Shown here: positions 1,971-22,251 of the stretch, piece after piece
Layout of the letters: every line of letters starts with the position of its first letter
Numbering within the stretch: the first letter of the stretch is position 1
Assembly: GCA_043718695.1 (NCBI GenBank)
Contig: JAYSVF010000080.1
Span: forward strand, 1 to 24,000
DNA from: Acidimicrobiia bacterium
GTDB lineage: Bacteria > Actinomycetota > Acidimicrobiia > Acidimicrobiales > JANYDT01
Reading direction: 5' to 3'
DNA length: 24,000 bases
Made by a program: the position numbers and the translations under genes
Notes under the pieces: model-generated
What the model saw: only the letters and a program-made list of their open reading frames with translations
Databases searched by the model: none
What the model was told of the DNA's origin: nothing

Positions 1971-2407
1971 AATCCACCAACAAATTCACCTTCTACGAGC
2001 CCGATCTCGACGGTTCTCTCCCCCGCCACTTCCTCCGTTCTGCTCTTTTCATTTGCCTTCTCCCCGGACGTTCCCACGGCTACGAACTCCTAGAGCAGGT
2101 CAGACTTTTCGGCCTCTCCACCGCGGATCTCGCCGGCGTGTATCGAGCCATGAAGTCGATGGAACATGATGGTCTCGTCAATTCCGAATGGGAGAAGTCT
2201 GGGCTCGGACCACCGCGACGCATTTACGAGTTGACTCCATTAGGCCTGATCGCTGCTGACAAGCACCGTAACGCCCTCCGAACGGCTCGCGATCACCTTG
2301 ACTTGATGATCAGATCCGTTTCGCCTCTTCCCGTTGACCACAGGTTCCAACACGGACTACGTAGCGCTTCGGTTGGGCCACGGCCTTCGAGTCAAAAGAC
2401 CTCATGA
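1967..2407 (+). CDS. PadR-family transcriptional regulator
   Basis: From the internal ATG at 1967 (ATGA overlap with the previous stop). GYELLEQV...LAGVYRAMKSMEHDGLVNSEWEKSGLGPPRRIYELTPLG is the classic PadR wHTH signature. The longer 1847 start was rejected (Arg/Ser-rich, overlaps the upstream gene). Confidence 0.85.
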   Translation: MKSTNKFTFYEPDLDGSLPRHFLRSALFICLLPGRSHGYELLEQVRLFGLSTADLAGVYRAMKSMEHDGLVNSEWEKSGLGPPRRIYELTPLGLIAADKHRNALRTARDHLDLMIRSVSPLPVDHRFQHGLRSASVGPRPSSQKTS

Positions 2408-3183
2408 GAATCGCCATTGCTGGTAAAGGGGGCGCAGGCAAGACCACCTTCTCCGCTACCACTGCTCGCCTACTCGCTCGGCAGGGAATGAACGTCGTCG
2501 CAATCGATGCCGATACCAATCCCAACCTAGCCGCCGCGATGGGTTTCGACCTCGCCGCAGTCTCCAACGTAGCCATACTTCCCACCAACATCGTGTCACG
2601 TCGTCTCGACGGTTCCGCAGCGCTGCGCCTGCCACTCGATGAGGTTCTCGACGGCCATGCAGTTCGTGGGCCAGATGGAGTTCGTCTCGTTCGCATGGGA
2701 ATGCCCGACCACGCCCAAGAAGGTTGCCTTTGTTCGGCCCATGCCGCCGGATCAGCTCTACTCGCCGACCTTGGTTCGCAATCTGAAACCTGGACAATCA
2801 TGGACTTAGAAGCATCGCCCGAACACTTAAGTCGTGGCACTGCACGCCATGCCGACGCACTGATCCTTGTGGCCGAGCCGTATTTCCGATCCCTTGAAGC
2901 TGTGCGACTCCAGGCGCGCCTGGCGGCAGAACTCCCAAACGTAGTTGTTGGAGCGGTGGCCAATAAACTCCGATCGCCCGAAGATGCACAAGCCGTCCGC
3001 GAGTTTGTTGACAGTATTGGAATTCCCCTCTGGGGTGAGGTTCCCTGGTCCGATGACATTACCAACGCCGATCGCCTCCGAATGTCACTGATCGATGCCG
3101 CGCCGGCCAGCCCAGCAGTTACGGGCATGCGGAACACGTTACGTACACTTATGGCACTGAAAGCATCACGAGTATGTGTGTAG
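2404..3183 (+). CDS. CooC-type (MinD/ParA-fold) nickel-insertion accessory ATPase
   Basis: Deviant Walker A motif MRIAIAGKGGAGKTT. The EGCLCSAH motif corresponds to the CooC C-x-C metal site, and DLEASPEHLSRGT to CooC DMEAGIEHFGRGT. ATGA overlap with PadR. Confidence 0.85.
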   Translation: MRIAIAGKGGAGKTTFSATTARLLARQGMNVVAIDADTNPNLAAAMGFDLAAVSNVAILPTNIVSRRLDGSAALRLPLDEVLDGHAVRGPDGVRLVRMGMPDHAQEGCLCSAHAAGSALLADLGSQSETWTIMDLEASPEHLSRGTARHADALILVAEPYFRSLEAVRLQARLAAELPNVVVGAVANKLRSPEDAQAVREFVDSIGIPLWGEVPWSDDITNADRLRMSLIDAAPASPAVTGMRNTLRTLMALKASRVCV

Positions 3184-3473
3184 GAGTTCCCGCTAGAGTA
3201 ATCGGTCCGGTCGACATGACCACCCACGAGGCCATGGTCGAGTGCAATGGAGTCCGCCGCAGCGTCAACGTTTCCTTAGTCGTCGAAACCGATGGCACAG
3301 GACTCAACCTCGGAGACTGGGTTCTTTTGCACGTCGGTTTTGCCATGAGCATTCTCGACGAAGACGAGGCACGTCGCACCTTGGAGTTACTCACCCTCCT
3401 TGGCGGCGACAATGAAGACTTCGAAGCTTTCGCCGCATCGGCCGAATCTCTTAACGCCTCCGTAGAACCATGA
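3174..3473 (+). CDS. hypC: Hydrogenase maturation chaperone HypC/HupF
   Basis: N-terminal MCVGVP and GDWVLLHVGFAMSILDEDEA are HypC hallmarks. Overlaps the CooC gene by 10 nt. Confidence 0.9.
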   Translation: MCVGVPARVIGPVDMTTHEAMVECNGVRRSVNVSLVVETDGTGLNLGDWVLLHVGFAMSILDEDEARRTLELLTLLGGDNEDFEAFAASAESLNASVEP

Positions 3474-4165
3474 CCGTGATCGACCCCTGCGGTTCGTTGG
3501 CGGTCGTTGCGCGTCACCTTTCCAATCGCATCGCGCAGGGGTCCACCCTCTGGGCGGTTGCACCCGAATTGGACGACCATGCACACCACCTCGCCGTGGA
3601 GTTCGTTCACCCAGCTTCGGTGGGAGCGATGGCTGTACCGGCAGTGGCTGTCTGCGGTGAGGCAGACCGAATGCTCGAAAAGCTCCGAGCGCAAGTCCGC
3701 ACCGGCGACGTCATCGTCTCGATGGGATACACCGACACATTCATTGTCGAGCTGTCCAATCGTGCCGTGGCGTGGGGAGCCGATCACGTTCACCTTGGAT
3801 GGGGGCAGGACCCAATCGCCAGTCCTCTTGACCCTCGGTCATTCTGTGTTCAACTCGGCACCGACGGGTCTAGCGAACGGTACCTCACCCGTTCGTACCA
3901 TTTGCTATGGGAACTTACATGCATTTGTCTTCAGAATCGAAAGTTGACAAGTGCACCTCACGACGATGTTCTCGTCACTACCAGCTGTTCGGTGTGCGCC
4001 GATGAAGCGACCACAACGGAAGTGACGGAAGTACTGACGAACGATAGAGCGCGAGTTCGGACAGCCTGCGGTCCGGAAGTCATTGATATCAGCCTCCTCG
4101 ACAATGTTCGACAACATGATCTCGTACTGGTACATGCTGGAATCGCCCTTCGAAGGTTGTCGTGA
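3470..4165 (+). CDS. Fusion protein: degenerate SIS (GmhA-like) domain plus C-terminal HypC-like OB domain
   Basis: The N-terminal ~160 aa follows the GmhA/SIS layout (HHLAVEFVHP ~ QHFAAELVGRF; HLLWELTCICL ~ HLLILHCLCELI) but lacks the GNGGS loop. The C-terminal 57 aa, VCADEATTTEVTEVLTNDRARVRTACGPEVIDISLLDNVRQHDLVLVHAGIAL, resembles HypC (..A.V...G....V.L.L....D.VLVH.G.A.). ATGA overlap with hypC. Confidence 0.7.
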   Translation: MTVIDPCGSLAVVARHLSNRIAQGSTLWAVAPELDDHAHHLAVEFVHPASVGAMAVPAVAVCGEADRMLEKLRAQVRTGDVIVSMGYTDTFIVELSNRAVAWGADHVHLGWGQDPIASPLDPRSFCVQLGTDGSSERYLTRSYHLLWELTCICLQNRKLTSAPHDDVLVTTSCSVCADEATTTEVTEVLTNDRARVRTACGPEVIDISLLDNVRQHDLVLVHAGIALRRLS

Positions 4166-4166
4166 C

Positions 4167-4916
4167 ATGGCTACGAGCAACTCCGTGAACGGACCGAGCT
4201 TCTTATACCCTTTCCTAGACGCAATGCCATTAGATGAAGCGCAAACGCCACAACATTCCGCGGACAAATCGACAAAGCACCCGACTGAAACCCTTTTCAG
4301 CAATAGCGAGCTCGAGGAATTGGCTGCAGCCGCTCGCGTCAGCTGGACTACCGGCGAGGAGTTAGACAAGGAAACGGTTATCGCAAATGAACTACTGATT
4401 GACGAAGCAGCACGGTTGATCGTCGAGAGCACGCTTGGGTTTGGTCGGGTGTTCGTAATTGGCAATGGAGGAAGTGCCTGCGATGCCCAACGATTCGTGC
4501 GCTTGCTACAACCCTCAGTCGCGGTATCGTCGTTGATGGATTCGGTGGTCATCACCGCGCTCGCAAATGATGTCGGCGCCGACCGTATCTTCGATCGCCA
4601 AATCGAAACCTTTGCAAAGTCTCAGGATGTTGTCGTGGCATTCAGCACGAGCGGCACATCCACAAATGTTCTCAGCGCACTTGCACGAGCGAGGCGAAAG
4701 GGAGCATTTACCATCGTCTTTGCTGGCTACGGGGGTGCGGCACTTACCAACAATCCCGATGTAGATGTTTGCCTCGCCGTGGACTCATCGAGCGTTCACC
4801 GCATCCAAGAAGCCCAGGGTGCCCTTACGTTGACACTCGCCGATCGGGTTGGTATGCATCTAGAGGTACGGCGCGGCACTACAACGGACGAATCAGCTAG
4901 GACCGCTACGCCATGA
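4167..4916 (+). CDS. SIS-domain protein (phosphoheptose-isomerase/GmhA-like) with an N-terminal ~70-aa extension
   Basis: From the ATG 1 nt after the previous stop. VFVIGNGGSACDAQRF, ALANDVGADRIFDRQIE, VVVAFSTSGTSTNVLSAL and SVHRIQEAQ match SIS/GmhA motifs. Confidence 0.8.
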   Translation: MATSNSVNGPSFLYPFLDAMPLDEAQTPQHSADKSTKHPTETLFSNSELEELAAAARVSWTTGEELDKETVIANELLIDEAARLIVESTLGFGRVFVIGNGGSACDAQRFVRLLQPSVAVSSLMDSVVITALANDVGADRIFDRQIETFAKSQDVVVAFSTSGTSTNVLSALARARRKGAFTIVFAGYGGAALTNNPDVDVCLAVDSSSVHRIQEAQGALTLTLADRVGMHLEVRRGTTTDESARTATP

Positions 4917-6037
4917 AGTTCGTTGACGAATACCGCGATCCACAAACCGCCAAGCTTGCACTCAAACAAATTGAATCATTGGCAGGAGATCAACCGCTGA
5001 AATTTATGGAAGTCTGTGGCGGACACACGCACACGATTTACCGTCATGGGATCGAGCAGATTCTTCCGCCGAATATTGAGCTCGTCCACGGTCCGGGCTG
5101 CCCGGTGTGCGTGATCCCCATGGGTCGAGTTGATGATGCGATTGCCGTGGCGCAAACCCCTGGGGTGATCTTCACAACCTTCGGCGACATGCTCCGCGTA
5201 CCGGGATCAACCTCAACGCTATTAGAGGCGAAGGCCCGTGGGGCCGATGTCCGTATGGTCTACTCGCCCCTCGACGCACTTGAGTTGGCCCGACGAAACC
5301 CTGATAGCCAAGTCGTTTTCTTTGCTGTCGGCTTCGAGACCACAGCGCCCTCCACGGCAATCACTCTTCGCCAGGCCAAACGTGACGGCGTCAGCAATTT
5401 TTCGGTGTTCTGCAACCACGTCACCATCGTTCCCCCGTTGTTAGCCATCCTCGATAGTCCCGGCCTCGAACTCCACGGATTCCTTGGGCCCGGGCACGTG
5501 GCCACCGTCGTCGGCCTGCGTCCATTTCAATTCGTAAGCGAACGTTACAACAAGCCGATCGTGGTGGCAGGCTTCGAACCACTTGACATACTCCAAGGTG
5601 TGTCCATGCTCCTGCAGCAGCGGGACCAGGGCCGCTGCGAAGTGCAAAACCAATACGGTCGGGCCGTTCCACCTTCTGGCAACCCCCGAGCCCTTGAGGT
5701 TATGGCTGAGGTTTTTGAACTTCGTCCACATTTCGAATGGCGCGGGCTGGGTTTCATCCCGCAATCCGGACTCCGACTTAATCCAACGTACGCAGATTAT
5801 GACACCGAACAACGCTTCACGGTTCCTGGTGTGCGTATTGCCGACCCGAAAGCGTGCCAGTGCGGCGAAGTGTTAAAGGGAGCGATTCGGCCTTGGGAAT
5901 GCAAGGTGTTCGGAACAGCGTGCACCCCACAAACACCGATCGGTACGTGCATGGTTTCGTCAGAGGGTGCATGCGCCGCGTTCTACAACTACGGTCGACT
6001 CTCCCAGCGCCGCAACATTGCGGTCCGTTCCGCATGA
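4913..6037 (+). CDS. hypD: Hydrogenase maturation protein HypD
   Basis: Motifs MKFVDEYRD, CGGHTHTIYRHG, GPGCPVCV, VGFETT, and the C-terminal GTCMVSSEGACAA cysteine motif. Confidence 0.95.
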   Translation: MKFVDEYRDPQTAKLALKQIESLAGDQPLKFMEVCGGHTHTIYRHGIEQILPPNIELVHGPGCPVCVIPMGRVDDAIAVAQTPGVIFTTFGDMLRVPGSTSTLLEAKARGADVRMVYSPLDALELARRNPDSQVVFFAVGFETTAPSTAITLRQAKRDGVSNFSVFCNHVTIVPPLLAILDSPGLELHGFLGPGHVATVVGLRPFQFVSERYNKPIVVAGFEPLDILQGVSMLLQQRDQGRCEVQNQYGRAVPPSGNPRALEVMAEVFELRPHFEWRGLGFIPQSGLRLNPTYADYDTEQRFTVPGVRIADPKACQCGEVLKGAIRPWECKVFGTACTPQTPIGTCMVSSEGACAAFYNYGRLSQRRNIAVRSA

Positions 6038-7125
6038 GTGGCGACACAACCGTCGCAGCTAGCCACTCGCTGAACAACGGTCGGCGAGCGAAACCTCGGT
6101 TCACTGATCAGGTCATTACCATGGCCCACGGCGCGGGCGGTTTAGCCAGCGAGGCTCTTGTTGATTCGGTCTTTCGAACAGCATTCACCGACTCTGAACT
6201 GCTGCGTGCCGATGATGGTGCGGTTCTTGAACTTGATTCGTCGTTGTCTGGTTTGGTCGACCTTGTCATGACTACCGACTCCTTCGTTGTGCGACCCCGA
6301 CGATTTCCCGGCGGATCAATAGGTACACTTGCTATTTGCGGAACCGTGAACGATCTTTGCGTGATGGGCGCCAAACCACGATGGTTGTCGGTAGCCTTTG
6401 TGCTCGAAGAGGGCTTTGCCGTGGAAGAACTCAGAGCCATTGTTGCCGATATGGCTGAGATGGCCAACCGCAGTGGTGTCCGAGTTGTTGCGGGAGATAC
6501 CAAGGTGGTTGAACGCGGAGCAGCCGACGGTTGCTATGTGACAACCACAGGAATTGGCACTCGTGTCAAGCATCGAGCTTTGGGTGCAGAACAGGTGAAG
6601 GTTGGTGACTCTGTAATCGTTTCGGGAAGGCTGGGCGACCACGGCATGGCCGTCATGCTCGCCCGCGGCGATCTCGCACTGTCGGCCGACATCGAATCTG
6701 ACTGCGCACCTCTCAATGACCTGATCGAAGCTGTAGTTCTCGCGGCTCCCAATGTCCGCTGGATGCGTGACCCAACCCGTGGCGGCCTCGCCAGCGCGCT
6801 AAACGAACTGGTTCGAGCAAACAACCTATCGGTCAAACTGGAGGAAACTTCGCTTCCAGTCATGCCTGCCGTAGCTGGTGCGTGCGAGTTGTTAGGCATT
6901 GACCCGCTCTACGTGGCCAACGAGGGGAAGGTCGTGCTCGTGGTCCCACCCAACGAAGCGGACGCCGCGCTCGGGGCCCTCCGTTCCCATCCCCTTGGAT
7001 TGCATGCAGCAGTTATTGGGACCATCAACGCTGAACCCTCGCGGATCGTCATGGTCCGAACGGCGTTTGGCGGAGAGCGTATTGTTGACCTTCTCGTCGG
7101 TGACCCGCTCCCAAGAATCTGCTGA
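6034..7125 (+). CDS. hypE: Hydrogenase maturation protein HypE
   Basis: Start taken at the ATG overlapping the hypD stop (ATGA at 6034-6037). MAHGAGG, an AIR-synthase-like core, and the C-terminal PRIC motif. Confidence 0.93.
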   Translation: MSGDTTVAASHSLNNGRRAKPRFTDQVITMAHGAGGLASEALVDSVFRTAFTDSELLRADDGAVLELDSSLSGLVDLVMTTDSFVVRPRRFPGGSIGTLAICGTVNDLCVMGAKPRWLSVAFVLEEGFAVEELRAIVADMAEMANRSGVRVVAGDTKVVERGAADGCYVTTTGIGTRVKHRALGAEQVKVGDSVIVSGRLGDHGMAVMLARGDLALSADIESDCAPLNDLIEAVVLAAPNVRWMRDPTRGGLASALNELVRANNLSVKLEETSLPVMPAVAGACELLGIDPLYVANEGKVVLVVPPNEADAALGALRSHPLGLHAAVIGTINAEPSRIVMVRTAFGGERIVDLLVGDPLPRIC

Positions 7126-14392: not shown

Positions 14393-14428
14393 TATATCCC
14401 AATTCCTGGAACCCGAGGAGGAATGACA

Positions 14429-14884
14429 ATGCTAAGGAAGATCGTTACTGGCGCACTTGTCTGCGTCGCAATCAGCCTGAGCGGAGCAGGTTCTGCCTCC
14501 GCCGCCGGTAAAGGTGCCACAGTCGACACGTACCCCGGCGAGTGGACGGTCATATCGGAGAACTGTAATCAATTGCCCGAAGGCCTCAATGTGTCTGGTT
14601 CCGGGACATTCAAGGATACCTTCTTGCCCAGCGGTGGCGTTGAGTCGCAGGGCCGAGGTACGGCCACGGACAGCGCCGGCAACACGTATGTTTGGCACTA
14701 CGCCAGCCACTCCACGGCCCAGACCGGTGGCTTCATTGACCACTTCAACCTTTCAGGGTCCGGGCCAGCGGCGTATGTGACTGCGTTCCAGGCCGTGGCC
14801 ACAGCCACTACCTTCGAACCCGTTTGGGTGCACGGCGACCCGTTCGATTTTGTGAACGGGACCGGTCGCTGCGACCCATTGTGA
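14429..14884 (+). CDS. Small secreted protein of unknown function (151 aa from ATG 14429; alternative ATG at 14423)
   Basis: The GGAGG core ends 7 nt before 14429. Sec signal MLRKIVTGALVCVAISLSGAGSASAA. The mature part is Gly/Ser/Thr/His-rich with two Cys. No family recognised. Confidence 0.7.
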   Translation: MLRKIVTGALVCVAISLSGAGSASAAGKGATVDTYPGEWTVISENCNQLPEGLNVSGSGTFKDTFLPSGGVESQGRGTATDSAGNTYVWHYASHSTAQTGGFIDHFNLSGSGPAAYVTAFQAVATATTFEPVWVHGDPFDFVNGTGRCDPL

Positions 14885-14888
14885 CAAG

Positions 14889-15521
14889 GTGACTACGAAA
14901 CTTCGGGTCGGCTTTCACTCGCTGGCCCGCAGTTTTGGTCAATCAGCCGGATTCGCGCGGCTGTACTGGGGAGTTATCGTCGTCCAAGGCGTTCACCTCT
15001 TCGAGCATGTCGTGCAACTCTTCCAGGTGTACGCGCTCGGAGTGCCCGACGACGATGCTTTCGGCCTGCTTGGGCTATTTTTCAAGTTCAATGGGACTGA
15101 GGAGTGGCTTCATCTCGTTTTCAACCTGACCTACCTGGCGTCGCTCGCTGTGCTCTTCGTTGGTGTCCTCGGGCTGTTTTACGATCGACTGTTATCGGGC
15201 GCGGTCATGATGGGCTTTGCCGTGTGGGGCCTGGGACTGGAGACCTGGCATGGAGTTGAGCATGCAGTCATCATCCGCAATGTGTTGCGCAACGGTGGGT
15301 GCCCGTGCCCGGGCATCGGCGACGTCGCTCTGGGGGTGACCGATACGCAGCTGCACTTCGTTTACAACGTTCTCGCTTACGCCGGCACAATCATTCCGTT
15401 CGTAGCCCTGTGGCGCGCCCACCGGATTCCACTTTTCGGTCGGTGGGAGCGTCGTCGCTTGAGTGCTCTCTCTCAACGCGCTGAATCACCTCTGATCGCC
15501 GGACAAACTGTTCACGGCTGA
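14889..15521 (+). CDS. Polytopic membrane protein of unknown function with conserved-looking His/Glu and CPCPG motifs
   Basis: GTG start 4 nt after the previous stop. About 4-5 hydrophobic segments. Motifs GVHLFEHVVQ, ETWHGVEHAVI and GGCPCPG. Confidence 0.6.
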   Translation: MTTKLRVGFHSLARSFGQSAGFARLYWGVIVVQGVHLFEHVVQLFQVYALGVPDDDAFGLLGLFFKFNGTEEWLHLVFNLTYLASLAVLFVGVLGLFYDRLLSGAVMMGFAVWGLGLETWHGVEHAVIIRNVLRNGGCPCPGIGDVALGVTDTQLHFVYNVLAYAGTIIPFVALWRAHRIPLFGRWERRRLSALSQRAESPLIAGQTVHG

Positions 15522-15573: not shown

Positions 15574-17766
15574 CTACACCTCAACGAGGAGCTTGACCCT
15601 GACCGCGATACCAGTCATGTGGGCTTGGCTTGAGAGCGGCTCGAAGCTGCCGGGGCCGGTTGGAAGCAGCGCGTTGGGATTTGAGCCGGGGTTCGCCGCA
15701 GCGACGCGAAGCCGTGGACTAGCGCGGTGGCCCCAACCATGCACCATCGATACAACGCCTTCCATAAGATCATCATCGATCTCGAGAACCGATTCGATTT
15801 CACCGTGCGCACTGGCAACGGTCACCAGCGATCCATCCACCAAACCTTGACGATTGGCATCCTTCGTGCACATACAAAGTGGGTTCATAGTCCGGCCATG
15901 GCGTTTCATGCGCTCCACGTTGGCAAACCAAGAGTTATGCATCCAAGCATCACGCTTATGGATCAGCAACAGTTCACCCTCGCCACGTCGAGCAGCACCG
16001 GCCATCCCTTCGTCGAACAGCTCGTGACAGCGTTCCAAAGCTCCAGCGAAGGTAGGCGGACAACAATCGATCAGACCATCGGCGGTGTGCACCTGATCTT
16101 CGAAAAACGAACCTGGCAACGGCGGAGCTAGCTCCCGAGGCGCATGATCGGCTTGAAGATCCTCAAGTGACAGGCCGCTCCCCCGCTCCAGCATGTGCCG
16201 CCACTTCGACCACGGATCGGGTTGTTCTCCCTCAACCAGGCCATCAAACAAATTGGCCTTCCCCAACTTTTGCAAGAGTTGATGAGCAATCCACCATTCT
16301 GGACGTCGCTCGCCGCCAGGTTCCACTACCGCCGGCGTGTACTGAGCGAAGGGTCGAGCGCTGGTGCCGATGTTGACAATGTTGAGATCGTCACGCTCGT
16401 ACATGTCGGTCGCCGGGAGCATCACGTGGGCAAACTCGCTCGTTGCGCTTGGATAGATATCGATAACCACAAGCAGTTCGAGCTGCTCGAAGGCTTTACG
16501 CAGCCGATCCTCACCGGCAATGGAGAGCAGCGGATTGCCCGCAACCACAATCATCGCCCGAATCGGATCGGCACTGTCGAGAATGGACTGCGACATCATC
16601 GTGCCCGGCAACGACCCTCGACGGAGAAAACCAAACTCTGTATCGCCATAACCCTGCTCGGGAACCCCAGCACCGGCGCGAGCATTGGGATAGAAGCCAT
16701 CGCTTTTGAGATTCCCGCCAACTACATCGAGCCTGCCGGTCACAAACGAAAGCATGTGCACAAGCCAATACGCGAGCGTGCCCTGACGACCCATATTGAT
16801 ACCGGTCGACGCATGGACCGAGGCACGCGGGGTCACCACCCAAGCCGAAGCGAGTTCGCGAACCGTTTCGGCGGAAATTCCGGTAACTTCCGCAGTGCGG
16901 TCGGGTGGATACTTCGAAAGGTAGGCGCGCAGATCATCAATGCGACGACCATGGGAGGAAATAACTCTTGCGTCAAACCCACCCAACCGATCGATCTCGT
17001 GCAGCAGAGATGCCAAGAACCACACATCAGTATCAGGACGAATCAGCAACGTGTCACCAACTCCCTGCTCCGGAGTTTCGATGCGACGAGGATTTACAAA
17101 GACCAGTCGAGCGCCACGTCCAGCGGCCCGTTTCATTTCGCCGAGCACGTTGGGAATGGAATAAAACGAGGCCTGTGAAGCCCGCGGGTTCTCACCAATG
17201 ATGAGGCAAAGATCGGTGTTGGCAAGATCAGGAATGGGGTGAACGGTGCTCGAACCGAACACGGCCTCGCTGGCCACGAACTTGTTCGCACAATCCTGCG
17301 TTCCGGAAGAGAATGCCCGGCGGATTCCAAGTGTGCGAAGCAGCGTTCCTGTATGGAGTTGGCCAAGGGCGTTAAACGCAGTGGGGTTTCCTACATAAGC
17401 ACCAACAGCGTTGATTCCATACTTGGCAATGATGCCCTTAAGCTTCGTGGCGGTATGCGTAAGCGCCTCATCCCATCCCGCTTCGCTCCAGGTTCCATCT
17501 GGGGATCGCAGCATGGGGGTGCTCAGCCGGTCGGGGTCATGGTGCAGATCCACGGCGGCGAGACCCTTATGACAGGCAAATCCTTTGGTCACCGGATGCT
17601 CACGGTCGGGCACTAACTTCACGAGGCGCCCCTCTTCGACCTTGGCGATCAATCCGCAGCTCGGTTCACAGATACGACAAAACGTTCGGATCTCCTGGGA
17701 GTCTTGGGAGGGAGTCACTGTTGACTGTGCTCGTGACTGTGCTCGTGATTGTGCTGTTGATTCCAT
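15574..17766 (-). CDS. Molybdopterin-dependent oxidoreductase (DMSO-reductase/formate-dehydrogenase superfamily) with an N-terminal 4Fe-4S motif; no Tat signal
   Basis: CRICEPSCG...ACHKG is a C-x2-C-x3-C...C motif, followed by MopB-type domains over 730 aa. The substrate cannot be assigned from sequence. Confidence 0.85.
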   Translation of the reverse strand: MESTAQSRAQSRAQSTVTPSQDSQEIRTFCRICEPSCGLIAKVEEGRLVKLVPDREHPVTKGFACHKGLAAVDLHHDPDRLSTPMLRSPDGTWSEAGWDEALTHTATKLKGIIAKYGINAVGAYVGNPTAFNALGQLHTGTLLRTLGIRRAFSSGTQDCANKFVASEAVFGSSTVHPIPDLANTDLCLIIGENPRASQASFYSIPNVLGEMKRAAGRGARLVFVNPRRIETPEQGVGDTLLIRPDTDVWFLASLLHEIDRLGGFDARVISSHGRRIDDLRAYLSKYPPDRTAEVTGISAETVRELASAWVVTPRASVHASTGINMGRQGTLAYWLVHMLSFVTGRLDVVGGNLKSDGFYPNARAGAGVPEQGYGDTEFGFLRRGSLPGTMMSQSILDSADPIRAMIVVAGNPLLSIAGEDRLRKAFEQLELLVVIDIYPSATSEFAHVMLPATDMYERDDLNIVNIGTSARPFAQYTPAVVEPGGERRPEWWIAHQLLQKLGKANLFDGLVEGEQPDPWSKWRHMLERGSGLSLEDLQADHAPRELAPPLPGSFFEDQVHTADGLIDCCPPTFAGALERCHELFDEGMAGAARRGEGELLLIHKRDAWMHNSWFANVERMKRHGRTMNPLCMCTKDANRQGLVDGSLVTVASAHGEIESVLEIDDDLMEGVVSMVHGWGHRASPRLRVAAANPGSNPNALLPTGPGSFEPLSSQAHMTGIAVRVKLLVEV
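17722..17757 (-). repeat. Three tandem 12-bp units (TGACTGTGCTCG x2, TGATTGTGCTGT) encoding (AQSR/T)3 at the oxidoreductase N-terminus
   Basis: Read directly from the sequence. The repeat is in frame (4 codons per unit). Confidence 0.9.
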
Positions 17767-17981: not shown

Positions 17982-19088
17982 CTAGCTTCGAGCGACCTGC
18001 CATGTCCCATTGGATCGCAACAGTTCCTGCAAATCTCCCGGCCCTTTGCGTGCCGAGGCCTGCAACAACTGCCCGGACATATCTGAACCGTAGTCACTTC
18101 GCTCGACTGATCGGAAAATACCGACGGGAGTTGGCGAATGCGTATCGTGCGATAGGCGGGCTAGCGCAAACGCTAAGGATGGATCTTCTCGATGGGCATC
18201 GTGCACGAGCAAGGAACTCTCGCCCACCTCTGCCACGGAGACTATTCGTAACTGCCCATCGGTTCCCATTACAACGCCACGCTCGCCATCGACGCCAAAT
18301 CGAATGGGTTGGCCATGTTCCAAATCCATCAACATGGCTGATCGATTGTCTTTGCCGGTAATCCCTTCGAACGCGCCATCGTTAAACACGTTGCAGTTTT
18401 GGAGAATTTCCACGAACGATGCACCCCGATGATTGTGGGCGGCACGAAACACCTTCATCATGTGTTTGCGATCCAAATCATGAGTACGCGCCACAAAACT
18501 TGCCTCGGCACCTAAAGCCACCGACAATGGATTGAAGGGATAGTCAAGCGATCCGAACGGAGTTGATTTGGTCACCTTGCCCTGTTCCGAAGTAGGCGAA
18601 TACTGGCCCTTTGTAAGCCCATAGATCTGGTTGTTGAACATCAGGATCGTGAGATTCACATTGCGGCGCAGGGCATGGATGAGATGGTTTCCGCCAATGG
18701 ATAGCCCGTCGCCATCACCGGTAATCACCCACACATCAAGATCAGGGCGGGCCAGGGCAATACCCGTCGCTACAGCTGGAGCCCTCCCGTGGATCGAATG
18801 GATACCGTAGGTGTTCATATAATATGGAAAGCGGCTGGAGCAACCGATACCCGAAACAAACACCACGTTCTCGGGCGCCACGCCCAACTCGGGCATCAAC
18901 ATTTGTACGGCCGTCAAGATGCCGTAGTCACCACACCCGGGACACCAGCGGACTTCTTGATCGCTCGTCCAATCCTTCTTCGACGTCAATGCAACCGGAT
19001 CAAACCCCGTCGGGCCGACTACGTCACCCGAACGGACGGTGCCTTTTTCCGACCGGCAAGCCGGATCGGTAACACCTGGATCACTCAT
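17982..19088 (-). CDS. korB: 2-oxoacid (2-oxoglutarate):ferredoxin oxidoreductase, beta (TPP-binding) subunit
   Basis: WCPGCGDYGIL, GIGCSSRFPYY and GDGDGLSIGGNH (TPP motif). ATGA overlap with the alpha subunit. Confidence 0.9.
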   Translation of the reverse strand: MSDPGVTDPACRSEKGTVRSGDVVGPTGFDPVALTSKKDWTSDQEVRWCPGCGDYGILTAVQMLMPELGVAPENVVFVSGIGCSSRFPYYMNTYGIHSIHGRAPAVATGIALARPDLDVWVITGDGDGLSIGGNHLIHALRRNVNLTILMFNNQIYGLTKGQYSPTSEQGKVTKSTPFGSLDYPFNPLSVALGAEASFVARTHDLDRKHMMKVFRAAHNHRGASFVEILQNCNVFNDGAFEGITGKDNRSAMLMDLEHGQPIRFGVDGERGVVMGTDGQLRIVSVAEVGESSLLVHDAHREDPSLAFALARLSHDTHSPTPVGIFRSVERSDYGSDMSGQLLQASARKGPGDLQELLRSNGTWQVARS

Positions 19089-20950
19089 GACAGTTCCCTT
19101 TCGATGACGGCTTGTAACTCAGCGGCGGTAAACGGAATTCCCTGAACTTTCGAAATAGCTTTTGCCGGCACCAGAAATTCTGATCTGACCACCCGACAGA
19201 GCTGACCAAGATTCATTTCAGGAACAATGATCTTTGGGTACCGTTGAAGCACCTCGCCAAGATTCGCGGGAAACGGATTGAGGTGCATGAGATGGACCCA
19301 TGCCACCTTGCGACCCGTTTGACGTACCTCGGCCACCGCGGCCTTAATCGCACCCCACGTTGAGCCCCAGCCGAGAACAAGCAATTCTGCGTCGGCATCA
19401 CCGGTTACCTCAACGAGCGGAATATCTTTGGCGATACCGGCGATTTTGTCTGCGCGCAGATGAACCATCTTTTCGTGGTTCTCGGGCGTGTAACTAATGT
19501 TGCCCGAACCATCTTCCTTTTCGATGCCGCCAACACGATGCATAAGTGCTGGCGTACCCGGAATAGCCCATGGTCTCGCCAGAGTTTCAGGATCACGCAG
19601 ATACGGCCAGAACTCCATCTCTCCATCTGCACGCATATGATTTAACTGCGTGGCAAACGGAACGGAGATATCGGGGAGTTGCGATACGTCGGGCAACTTC
19701 CATGGATGGGCGCCATTGGCTAGATAGCCATCGGACAACAAGATGACCGGTGTGCGGTACTTGAGGGCAATACGAGCCGCTTCGATCGCCGCTTCAAAGC
19801 AATGCGGTGGGTTGTAAGCCGCGACTACTGGTAGTGGAGCTTCTCCGTGACGGCCATAGAGGGCCATGAGAAGGTCGGCCGCTTCAGTCTTGGTTGGTAA
19901 CCCCGTTGAGGGCCCGCCGCGCTGCACGTCGATGATGAGCAGCGGCAATTCAAGACTCACCGCGAGACTCATCGTTTCGCCTTTGAGGGCAACACCAGGT
20001 CCACTTGTGGTGGTCACGCCAAGATGACCGGCAAAGGCCGCGCCGAGCGCACTGCCGATAGCGGCGATTTCATCCTCGGCCTGAAACGTTCTTACGCCAA
20101 AATTCTTGTGTTTCGAAAGCTCATGAAGAATGTCAGAAGCCGGGGTGATCGGATAGGAACCAAGAAACACCGGAAGTCGAGCGCATTGCCCAGCAGCTAC
20201 CAAACCCCAAGCCAAAGCGGTGTTCCCAGTGATATTGGTGTACTCCCCCGCTGGGAGCTTTGCTGGATCCACTTGAAACGGATGATCAAAAAGTTCCGTG
20301 GTTTCACCAAAGTTATAACCCGCGCTGAAGGCTGCTCGGTTCGACAAACGCACGAGCTCGTTCTTGGCGAACTTCTCATCAATCCATTCCATGGTCGAAT
20401 CAATCGGCCTTGAGTAACACCAGGAGATCAGCCCGAGAGCAAAGAAGTTCTTCGAACGATCGGCATCGCGCTGTTTGACGCCCAGGGGAAGAACAGCCGC
20501 AATGGTAAGCGACGTCATGGGAACCTCCACCACCCGGTACAACGCAAGGCTGTCATCAAGCAGAGGATTTTCGGTGAACCCCGCTTTCGTGAGGTTCCGC
20601 TCATCGAAGGTATCGGTGTTCACAATCACCACTCCGCCGGGAAGCAGGTGGTGTAGATCGGCTTTGAGCGCGGCAGGATTCATGGCGATCAGAACCGTTG
20701 GCGCGTCGCCGGGTGTGGAGATTTCGTGATCAGAAATCCGCACCTGAAAAGACGAAACCCCAGCCAAAGTTCCGGCTGGGGCACGAATTTCTGCTGGGTA
20801 CTCAGGAAATGTGGACAGGTCGTTTCCAAACAGTGCACTTACCGAGGTGAATCGATCCCCCGTGAGTTGCATCCCATCGCCAGAATCGCCGGCGAAGCGA
20901 ATGACGAGATCGGTGAGATGCTCTGCGGGTCTTGCTGCTGTATCGGTCAT
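19085..20950 (-). CDS. korA: 2-oxoacid (2-oxoglutarate):ferredoxin oxidoreductase, alpha subunit
   Basis: FAGDSGDGMQLTG, YPITPASDILH and TSGPGVALK motifs. 621 aa, the two-subunit actinobacterial KOR-type layout. GGAGGG SD upstream. Confidence 0.9.
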   Translation of the reverse strand: MTDTAARPAEHLTDLVIRFAGDSGDGMQLTGDRFTSVSALFGNDLSTFPEYPAEIRAPAGTLAGVSSFQVRISDHEISTPGDAPTVLIAMNPAALKADLHHLLPGGVVIVNTDTFDERNLTKAGFTENPLLDDSLALYRVVEVPMTSLTIAAVLPLGVKQRDADRSKNFFALGLISWCYSRPIDSTMEWIDEKFAKNELVRLSNRAAFSAGYNFGETTELFDHPFQVDPAKLPAGEYTNITGNTALAWGLVAAGQCARLPVFLGSYPITPASDILHELSKHKNFGVRTFQAEDEIAAIGSALGAAFAGHLGVTTTSGPGVALKGETMSLAVSLELPLLIIDVQRGGPSTGLPTKTEAADLLMALYGRHGEAPLPVVAAYNPPHCFEAAIEAARIALKYRTPVILLSDGYLANGAHPWKLPDVSQLPDISVPFATQLNHMRADGEMEFWPYLRDPETLARPWAIPGTPALMHRVGGIEKEDGSGNISYTPENHEKMVHLRADKIAGIAKDIPLVEVTGDADAELLVLGWGSTWGAIKAAVAEVRQTGRKVAWVHLMHLNPFPANLGEVLQRYPKIIVPEMNLGQLCRVVRSEFLVPAKAISKVQGIPFTAAELQAVIERELS

Positions 20951-21126: not shown

Positions 21127-21231
21127 GGCAAACGATCTCGGCGATCGAATTACCGAACAGTGGTCCTTCAGTTCTTCTAGCGGCGGCTTTGTTTGCTGCG
21201 GGCAAACGAATCTCGTCGATCGAATTACCGA
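21127..21231. repeat. Two copies of a ~30-nt direct repeat (GGCAAACGA(A)TCTCG[G/T]CGATCGAATTACCGA) at 21127-21156 and 21201-21231
   Basis: Read directly from the sequence: one indel plus one mismatch. The second copy spans the TAA stop of the CMD-family gene and includes the 3' arm of a GTTTGC-N5-GCAAAC hairpin (21191-21207). The first copy lies in the korA upstream region. Confidence 0.85.
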
Positions 21232-21737
21232 GGAGTAGGTACAACCACGAGCGGCAAATTCTGTGGTTCCATTCCTAGCGTGATGATCTGTTTGGAGTAG
21301 CCGATGAAGGTGCCAATCGCATAGGTAATCTCGACGATCTCATCGGGCGCAAACAGCCTCTGGAGATCGGCGATCACCTGCGGTGGCGCATCGTGGCCAC
21401 CGGCGAGGACAACATCGGCCCACGCAAGAGCCGCCTTGGTGCGTTCCGGCAGAACAATACTCCCAGCGTGGTCAGCAATATCGGCGACGAGTTCTTCGGT
21501 AAGTCCAGCCTCACGGGCCAGATCAAATCGGACTTGTTGTCAAAGTCCGCAGCGGTTGACATTTGCGTTACGTAACCGCATCGCCTCTTTGATATCCATG
21601 CCAACCACCCCACGACCGAGAAGCGTTGCATACATATGATCGAAGGCCGCGGTCAACTCGGGGGTGTGAGCTCGTGCGGTTCCAATATGTGCAGAGCTTT
21701 CGGCGCTGGCCGATCCGACGCGAGGTGTTGTAGACAT
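21225..21737 (-). CDS. Carboxymuconolactone decarboxylase (CMD)/AhpD-family protein with an in-frame TGA at codon 66: candidate selenoprotein (C-G-L-U) or, alternatively, a nonsense pseudogene
   Basis: The ATG at 21737 is preceded by GAAGGA 8 nt upstream. The frame reads ...DIKEAMRLRNANVNRCGL-TGA(21542-21540)-QQVRFDLAREAGLTEELVADIADHAGSIVLPERTKAALAWADVVLAGGHDAPPQVIADLQRLFAPDEIVEITYAIGTFIGYSKQIITLGMEPQNLPLVVVPTPR-TAA(21227-21225). Total length is 170 codons against 169 for the upstream paralogue. The TGA sits at the second Cys of the family CxxC motif. Confidence 0.55.
21501..21535 (-). other. Candidate bacterial SECIS-like hairpin starting 4 nt after the in-frame UGA
   Basis: The mRNA reads UGA-CAAC-AAGUCC-GAUUUGAUCUGGCCCGUGAGGCU-GGACUU. 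Six Watson-Crick pairs (AAGUCC/GGACUU) are extendable through G-U and U-A pairs toward a GG-containing apical loop (CUGGCCC) about 21 nt from the UGA. Folded by eye only. Confidence 0.35.
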
Positions 21738-21741
21738 GGGC

Positions 21742-22251
21742 TCAATCCTTCTTTGCACTCGTTGGACCCGATGGACCCGTTTGATCTGTTGGACCCGAAG
21801 GAACGGCCGTGCCGAGCGCGTTCTCAAATCGATGCTGGTTCTCCCACACGCCAAGCGCGGTAGTGAACGCCACGATCCCCGCTTCTCCGAGCAGGCGACG
21901 AACCGATTCCGCTTGCGCGTCGGTGATGGCGTGTTGATCGATCACGAACAGTTCCGCAAACTCGATACAGGCACGCTCCGATTCATCGAAAGATGGATCA
22001 CTTGGCCATTGCGATAGCTTCTCAATCTTGAGCTCAGTGAGTCCAGCGATACGCGGTGCTTCATATCGTTGCGCTAATGCCTGGGAACAACGAAGTATTT
22101 GCGCCATACGCAACCGACACAGTTCGAGCAGTGGAGCCGGCACGTCGGAGGCCCAAATGGCTTCGATCAGTTTCGCGTGTGCGTCGGCGAGGGGAGGCCG
22201 CAACGAAAGCAGATCGTTAGTTGTTGTCTCCGAACCTGTCAACCAACCCAT
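21742..22251 (-). CDS. CMD/AhpD-family protein (169 aa from ATG 22251; start uncertain), with a single Cys (C-S-Q-A) at the redox motif
   Basis: LLELCRLRMAQILRCSQALAQRY...LSQWPSDPSFDESERACIEFAELF matches the CMD family layout. The upstream TTG extension to 22329 lacks support. The stop lies 4 nt before the next gene's ATG. Confidence 0.75.
   Translation of the reverse strand: MGWLTGSETTTNDLLSLRPPLADAHAKLIEAIWASDVPAPLLELCRLRMAQILRCSQALAQRYEAPRIAGLTELKIEKLSQWPSDPSFDESERACIEFAELFVIDQHAITDAQAESVRRLLGEAGIVAFTTALGVWENQHRFENALGTAVPSGPTDQTGPSGPTSAKKD

Follow-up and report, generated by a model that had tools for sequence, protein, structure and literature searches.

An in-frame UGA, very probably a selenocysteine codon, in an AhpD-like/CMD-fold gene of an Acidimicrobiia contig

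Does a TGA in the middle of a gene end the protein, betray a gene that has died, or specify selenocysteine (Sec)? The question is raised by a minus-strand gene at 21737-21225 of a contig from an Acidimicrobiia bacterium (JAYSVF010000080.1, assembly GCA_043718695.1, positions 1 to 24,000; this whole 24,000-nucleotide stretch is called the window below). A preliminary description of the window noticed that the TGA falls where AhpD/CMD-family proteins carry the second Cys of a CxxC redox motif, and proposed selenocysteine rather than a dead gene. The analysis reported here arrives at the same place: very probably this is a genuine Sec-encoding gene in which UGA codon 66 is read as selenocysteine, and each refutation test that could be run came out in favor of that reading. 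The intact gene would then specify a 170-residue selenoprotein of the AhpD-like/CMD fold, with a C63-G-L-U66 redox center flanked by Glu51 and Arg70.

The reading frame and its UGA

The elements of the gene are these (dN/dS is the ratio of nonsynonymous to synonymous substitution rates; A2 and A4 are alignments of the family):

21225..21737, minus strand: complete coding sequence (CDS) of the proposed selenoprotein, AhpD-like/CMD fold with a C63-G-L-U66 center; from translation, Pfam CMD, full-length orthologues of like architecture and dN/dS
21540..21542, minus strand: in-frame UGA, codon 66, the proposed selenocysteine codon; TGA in 59 of 62 loci, TGC in 3
21549..21551, minus strand: Cys63 codon TGC, first residue of CxxU; invariant in A2 and A4
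21585..21587, minus strand: Glu51 codon GAG, 11 residues ahead of Cys63 (E-x11-C); invariant in A2 and A4
21528..21530, minus strand: Arg70 codon CGA, at +4 from Sec; invariant in A2 and A4, His in PA0269 (CVNMH)
21746..21750, minus strand: Shine-Dalgarno-like AAGGA, 8 nt 5' of the ATG, where it overlaps the 3' end of the gene upstream; read from the sequence

The frame opens at the minus-strand ATG 21737-21735 and begins MSTTPRV...RLRNANVNRCGL; a program-made list of open reading frames (ORFs) ends the gene at the TGA, 21542-21540. Past that triplet the same frame holds 104 sense codons, QQVRFDLAREAGLTEEL...VVPTPR, before it reaches TAA at 21227-21225. Read from 21737 to 21225, the minus-strand translation is MSTTPRV...NRCGL*QQVRFDLAREAGL...VVPTPR*, that is, 65 codons, the TGA as codon 66 and 104 sense codons, 170 in all, just as the preliminary description had it. 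Pfam CMD (PF02627) matches residues 26-108 when U is written as C, passing its threshold (29 bits, cut-off 23). The C63-G-L-U66 motif lies inside that match, and Sec is the last residue of its CxxU. Elsewhere in the window, no in-frame TGA with long open sequence on both sides made a convincing further candidate.

A 27-nt direct repeat (21135-21161 and 21210-21236, 89% identical, 75-nt spacing) touches the 3' end of the gene. One copy, 21210-21236, overlaps the final codons with the TAA, and the second sits in the spacer ahead of korA. A small duplication of the 3' end of the gene may account for the repeat.

The TGA column in relatives

Related DNA came from three sources: two Actinomycetes metagenome-assembled genomes (MAGs; L001 and L002, 72% identity), contigs bearing fragment proteins (L003-L015) and a metagenome scan (L016-L074). 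The TGA count covers the 62 loci with an alignable motif region; among the relatives there are 44 distinct TGA-containing sequences. The 62 loci range from 36 to 95% identity to the window protein and come from soil, freshwater and marine assemblies as well as the two MAGs; 59 of them have TGA in the same column, and three (L045, L049 and L056) have TGC. An open run of 104 codons past a stop would be expected by chance in about 2% of cases at the local base composition (an estimate); with TGA held in so many loci, it is the conservation of the column, rather than the length of the open frame, that is decisive.

Protein databases tell the same story from the other side. In the first protein search, 10 of 11 matches were fragments of 94-108 residues that begin just past the TGA column; gene callers thus split the relatives too, and the truncation by standard gene callers that had been foreseen is borne out by how the relatives were deposited. 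A search with the C-terminal 104 residues against 1.84 billion cluster representatives matched 127 clusters of three kinds: fragments of about 100 residues whose first residues are VRFD, CxxC proteins of full length (167-188 residues), and fusions of two domains, about 330-355 residues long. In the full-length Cys homologues from the two protein searches (P0005, P0014 and P0027 among them) the second Cys of CxxC stands in the TGA column, the motif itself varying (CGFC, CGLC, CGSC, CKIC, CRLC and others). The same register is found in a solved structure: CAYC of PA0269 (2ijc/2o4d) aligns with CGL-TGA, its second Cys on the TGA (E 5e-9, residues 35-159). The placing of the TGA at the second Cys of CxxC therefore stands, as does the expectation that the column would hold Cys or TGA in relatives.

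Translation beyond the TGA

If the protein continues through the UGA, the two sides of that codon should have evolved alike. Between the window and its closest relative (L003, 95% identical) dN/dS is 0.041 on the 5' side of the TGA and 0.040 on the 3' side, with dS at 0.86-1.0. The ratio is below 1 in both halves in 28 of 28 pairs, and in most pairs the post-TGA value, 0.04-0.25, equals the pre-TGA value; no frameshift or second stop occurs in any orthologue compared. Judged by these substitution rates, the segment past the TGA is under the same purifying selection as the segment before it, without decay, and the preliminary view that the gene is not dead is upheld.

A SECIS-like hairpin

Bacterial selenocysteine insertion sequence (SECIS) elements lie within the CDS, right after the UGA, and have a small loop containing G, according to the account given in PMC1088965. 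A hairpin of this kind follows codon 66:

21503..21524, minus strand: SECIS-like hairpin within the CDS; from loop invariance, covariation and isolated fold
Its parts, minus strand: 5' arm 21524-21516; apical loop CGUGA 21515-21511; 3' arm 21510-21503
21501..21535, minus strand: alternative outer stem AAGUCC (21535-21530) / GGACUU (21506-21501), window-specific; from folding and orthologue pairing

The hairpin begins 15 nt past the UGA and its loop 24 nt past it. With column numbers that start at the T of TGA, 19-27 pair with 33-40, and the conserved core is a GGCC-CGUGA-GGCY stem-loop with a lower stem (columns 19-40). All 44 distinct Sec forms share the same CGUGA loop. Codons 74-76 (GCC CGT GAG) are identical in the 8 of 8 full-length orthologues compared; other conserved codons of the gene with four- or six-fold degeneracy differ in 25-86% of pairs, and CGT makes up only 23% of Arg codons in the window genome. 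The stem varies in step: pair 24-36 is G-C in 17 sequences, C-G in 13, U-A in 8, G-U or U-G in 2 and unpaired in 4, and pair 27-33 is C-G in 40, U-A in 4 and never unpaired. The U-A state at pair 27-33 combines two synonymous changes, Ala GCC to GCU and Glu GAG to GAA. Pairing reaches 91.8% of cells in the bulged register and 84-92% overall; with the 3' partner slid it is 25-56%. The covariation score was not reached in any of 500 shuffles. Compensatory changes appeared only once the metagenome scan had brought in diverged members: RNAalifold on the first nine close orthologues gave none.

The window's own copy pairs U21-A39, C22-G38, U23-G37, G24-U36, G25-C35, C26-G34 and C27-G33, plus G19-C40. 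Folded in isolation it has -8.4 kcal/mol and a z-score of -1.98; isolated hairpins of the Sec forms run from -2.0 to -2.7. In the three TGC forms CGC replaces CGU and there is no such hairpin (z +0.1 and +0.4).

The stem singled out in the preliminary description is the outer one, AAGUCC/GGACUU. It does exist in the window (-9.1 kcal/mol, z -0.78) and shares its 3' arm with the conserved hairpin, but it is paired in only 59.5% of cells across the 44 orthologues and was rejected as the conserved element in favor of the inner hairpin. What survives of the earlier claim is that a hairpin follows the UGA, conserved and covarying; what does not is the identity of the stem.

Two departures from the common pattern were seen. 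In L057, L058 and L060 the peptide RFAGAKQQGL replaces RFDxAREAGL; the TGA is kept, and a perfect hairpin of another sequence, GCUUCGC-AGGU-GCGAAGC, stands 10 nt past the UGA (-12 kcal/mol, z -3.5), which suggests SECIS turnover within one protein family. The gene for P0005, a Cys form with TGC (L081 242-325), has kept CGTGAG while stem pairs 24-36 and 23-37 are broken; this looks like the decaying fossil of a SECIS that a Sec-to-Cys conversion left behind.

If it acts as bacterial SECIS elements do, the hairpin at 21524-21503, with its stem of 7-8 bp and CGUGA loop, would direct the recoding: it would recruit SelB-GTP-Sec-tRNA(Sec) to a ribosome paused at UGA 21542-21540, and the codon would be decoded as Sec.

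Other readings of the UGA

The case for selenocysteine has to be set against several observations that weigh the other way. The 24-kb window and the fetched loci yielded no selA, selB or selD gene, nor did ARAGORN find tRNA-Sec in the window and 54 loci. An AIR-synthase-family gene at 5854-7125, adjoining hypD, was considered as SelD and rejected: it is HypE (415 bits, against 38.5 for SelD, where 125 applies). The fold of 91 nt around the UGA is no more stable than shuffles (z +0.18), and the same holds for a 54-nt stretch (z -0.13); only the isolated 22-nt hairpin stands out. Rfam has no match, either in 21200-21800 at E <=10 or in the whole window at gathering thresholds. The window hairpin, with two G-U pairs and its z of -1.98, is among the weaker versions. 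Most hairpin pairs never vary, and covariation is carried by two to three of them; moreover, the sequences are related and the shuffles ignore relatedness, which inflates the shuffle statistics. The real evidence is accordingly the two covarying pairs. Finally, function and heterodimer formation (see below) are argued from homology and gene linkage only, and the insertion of Sec is something that we infer.

One way to accommodate the conserved frame without selenocysteine supposes that the UGA is read as a standard amino acid (Trp, Cys or Gly), through code reassignment or leaky suppression. A relative some 90% identical, P0142 (from the Joint Genome Institute, JGI; a 927-bp contig), seems to speak for this, being listed as a full-length 170-aa protein with CGLW, that is, with Trp at the Sec position. 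The W, however, is most simply a gene-caller choice, presumably of a translation table that reads TGA as Trp, and a CxxC motif with Trp in its nucleophilic place would have no activity. TGA terminates 5 of 9 neighboring genes, including the partner gene whose stop lies 4 nt upstream; it is thus an ordinary stop here, and global reassignment can be set aside. The hairpin, conserved only in TGA forms, points to SelB-type recoding instead. Such a reading is very improbable, though it fares best among the alternatives.

A second possibility, rated a shade lower again, accepts the selenoprotein family but holds that the window copy is inactive, its host lineage having lost Sec decoding. The two G-U pairs that leave the window hairpin weaker than those of most orthologues would fit such a loss, as would the failure to find Sec machinery in the window and fetched loci. 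Yet a dN/dS of 0.04 in both halves against L003, at a dS of about 0.9, argues that selection has acted on the full-length frame in this lineage, and U21-A39 (GAU with GGA) keeps the window hairpin paired in the symmetric register.

The third alternative takes the TGA as a true stop: halves of 65 and about 104 residues would be made separately, the second by re-initiation, and would then assemble. Many gene callers do start a second fragment at a GTG two codons past the TGA (the MRFD... fragments). Only 10 of the 44 distinct sequences have that GTG (the codon is GTC in the window, GTT in its closest relative), so re-initiation is not a conserved feature. The break would also fall exactly on the catalytic Cys column, the Cys forms are single polypeptides, and the conserved hairpin past the supposed stop has the placement and loop type of a bacterial SECIS. 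A split gene is therefore very improbable.

That the locus is a pseudogene, a CMD-family gene with a nonsense mutation so recent that the downstream frame is undecayed, can hardly be credited: gene callers end it at the TGA and the window shows no Sec machinery, but the TGA is shared down to 36% identity by sequences too distinct (44 of them) to be assembly duplicates of one, with dN/dS past the TGA matching that before it and orthologues free of frameshifts and extra stops.

Fold, active site and likely activity

Selenocysteine at position 66 would sit in a familiar fold. The AlphaFold model of the Cys homologue P0005 (44% identical) has a mean predicted local distance difference test (pLDDT) score of 93, and its best PDB matches are Atu0492, PA0269/AhpD of Pseudomonas aeruginosa and an alkyl hydroperoxide reductase of Deinococcus radiodurans, with template modeling (TM) scores of 0.65-0.82; Bmp8, a thiol-dependent dehalogenase with the CMD fold, is also among the fold matches. 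The best sequence matches in solved structures are PA0269 (2ijc, 2o4d; later deposited as AhpD, 7xw1) and Atu0492 (2gmy).

E51, R54, C63, R70, G78 and E81 are invariant in the family, and position 66 is Cys or Sec. AhpD of Mycobacterium tuberculosis, the reductant of AhpC, has an E-x11-C-x-x-C-x3-H active site. The window family keeps the E-x11-C-x-x-(C/U) spacing, and the recoded residue is the second Cys of the motif; it differs in that the His, present after the motif in PA0269 as well, is an invariant Arg. A gene for AhpD in the strict sense was considered and rejected: Arg stands for His, the TIGR00778 score is below threshold, and there is no ahpC nearby (no peroxiredoxin/ahpC gene was found among the window ORFs scanned). 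On the evidence of sequence and fold, the protein is most likely an oxidoreductase of the selenol/thiol kind, reducing peroxides or disulfides as AhpD-type enzymes do.

The N-terminal segment MSTxPR(V/L) (residues 1-6, window 21720-21737) is conserved even in Cys homologues only 40-45% identical, and is a high-confidence coil in the model (pLDDT 86-89). This suggests a fixed structural or functional role.

The upstream partner gene

The selenoprotein gene does not stand alone:

21742..22251, minus strand: upstream partner gene, a 169-aa degenerate paralogue of the CMD fold with C-S-Q-A for C-x-x-U; from identity, linkage and fusion match

The resemblance to the 169-aa product upstream, remarked on in the preliminary description, holds at 27% identity (E 2e-8), with CSQA aligned to CGLU. 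The stop of this paralogue, TGA 21744-21742, comes 4 nt ahead of the selenoprotein ATG, from which co-transcription and translational coupling may be expected. Of the 42 loci with enough sequence, 39 have a homologue of the paralogue immediately upstream and on the same strand; in the loci examined no other neighbor is conserved. In fusion proteins (P0020, P0026, P0035 and others) the N-terminal domain corresponds to the paralogue (35% identity, E 2e-24 for P0035) and the C-terminal domain to the selenoprotein (40%, E 3e-30); domain order is thus gene order. The model of the fusion P0035 has two helical CMD-like domains (pLDDT 87.6; predicted TM score, pTM, 0.89). Upstream linkage in most loci and fusion to a CxxC domain elsewhere together define a two-gene cassette.

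From this linkage, the selenoprotein and the product of the gene at 21742-22251, to which it is translationally coupled, probably make up a heterodimer in which only one subunit would bear the redox center. A bolder proposal, which we hold only tentatively and consider rather doubtful, is that the cassette represents a distinct CMD selenoprotein subfamily and an obligate two-subunit enzyme. A catalytic subunit with E51/C63/U66/R70 and the MSTxPR N-terminus would act with a degenerate upstream or fused CMD partner; the subfamily would occur widely, in uncultured Actinomycetes as well as in bacteria from sea and soil, would fall outside NCBIfam models, and would be split by gene callers in most public assemblies. 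The substrate of such a two-subunit subfamily could differ from that of classical AhpD, as thiol-dependent dehalogenases such as Bmp8 share the CMD fold.

Neighboring genes

The surroundings of the cassette differ among relatives. In L003 (4836-4870) a molybdopterin oxidoreductase gene follows 34 nt past the selenoprotein gene; in the window (17982-20950) and in L080 an alpha/beta pair for a 2-oxoacid:ferredoxin oxidoreductase lies between the two. The difference is a recent rearrangement or insertion. The window's 730-aa molybdopterin oxidoreductase (15574-17766) is related to the formate dehydrogenase alpha subunit, at 205 bits against a cut-off of 666. Its frame is uninterrupted and so has no Sec codon; its counterpart adjoins the selenoprotein cassette in L003 and L004.

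Farther off, at 2404-7125, lies a maturation cluster for [NiFe]-hydrogenase: a CbiA/ParA-type NTPase (2404-3183), a SIS-domain GmhA-like protein (4083-4916), HypD (4913-6037) and HypE (within 5854-7125). The window has no hydrogenase structural genes. On the plus strand, 14423-14884 and 14889-15521 are adjacent ORFs of 153 and 210 aa that match nothing in Pfam or NCBIfam; the first closes with ...GRCDPL-TGA, and the next 71 in-frame sense codons overlap the second.

Near a distant member of the CMD cassette family, in a genome of 6.67 Mb, a glutathione peroxidase gene (L077 1815-2285; L079 2814-3284) reads TGA in frame at its catalytic position (NLASQ*GFT). Between it and that cassette member, about 1.7 kb downstream, is a rhodanese gene, and gene callers break the peroxidase into pieces of 35 and 101 residues. 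At least some carriers of the family thus appear to have another candidate selenoprotein.

Significance

In the protein databases searched, relatives of this gene are nearly all present as fragments of 65 and about 100 aa, or with W at the Sec position. A cassette for a putative antioxidant or redox selenoenzyme is in this way invisible to standard annotation. The source lineage, whose relatives are labeled Actinomycetes MAGs, is a probable selenocysteine user. Conceptually little is added: exchange of Cys and Sec at the CxxC of AhpD-like/CMD proteins and SECIS elements within the CDS are textbook features of bacterial selenoproteomes. The partner linkage and the change from His to Arg are modest new details that could guide biochemistry.

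Comparison with known systems

The hairpin resembles the SECIS of Escherichia coli fdhF in type: it lies in the CDS, 15 nt past the UGA, with a 5-nt loop, CGUGA, that contains G and GU, and many orthologues of the window hairpin have a single-nucleotide bulge. Its sequence is unrelated to that of fdhF, and its role as a SECIS is putative.

As for the protein, PA0269/AhpD and Atu0492 are Cys proteins, about 145 residues long, that carry His at the fourth position past the second Cys. The window protein has Sec, Arg at the His position, an extra N-terminal segment of about 25 residues and a partner paralogue. Among curated families, no NCBIfam model reaches its cut-off with the window protein. 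The best match, NF053654 ('YciW-related (seleno)protein', GroundWater_YciW; E 1.7e-13), is like it in being a CMD-type family that NCBI treats as containing selenoproteins; at 50.7 bits against a cut-off of 310, however, the window protein is not a member. TIGR00778, the AhpD core, gives 13.5 bits (cut-off 27.8), TIGR01926, a peroxidase-related enzyme of COG2128 type, 13.5 against 81.8, and NF041047, the GSU3128 (seleno)protein, 12.6 against 110.

Selenoproteins of this general kind have been on record for some time, and the selenocysteine reading, while it stands, is less novel than the preliminary description implied. The Sargasso Sea survey of 2005 by Zhang and Gladyshev gives, among CxxU selenoproteins, 27 AhpD-like and 4 CMD-domain sequences (PMC1088965). 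The 2008 account of the Global Ocean Sampling (GOS) data lists 299 genes for AhpD-like 1 (COG2128) and 70 for AhpD-like 2 (pfam02627), the latter commoner in non-marine samples (PMC2398784). Current reviews and a dedicated database also list AhpD-like/CMD selenoproteins (PMC13188914, PMC13326102). The window gene shares with the families of Zhang and Gladyshev, as these are described, the CMD/AhpD domain, Sec as the second residue of CxxU, widespread Cys homologues, a SECIS-type hairpin after the UGA and a home in environmental bacteria. The likeness is one of description; the same family descriptions do not include Arg at +4, the MSTxPR N-terminus or an obligatory degenerate paralogue upstream. 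The window gene is, then, a known kind of selenoprotein that belongs to no curated equivalog family. What it adds to those published family descriptions is the two-gene cassette with its fusions, the E/C/U/R constellation, and mis-annotation on a wide scale.

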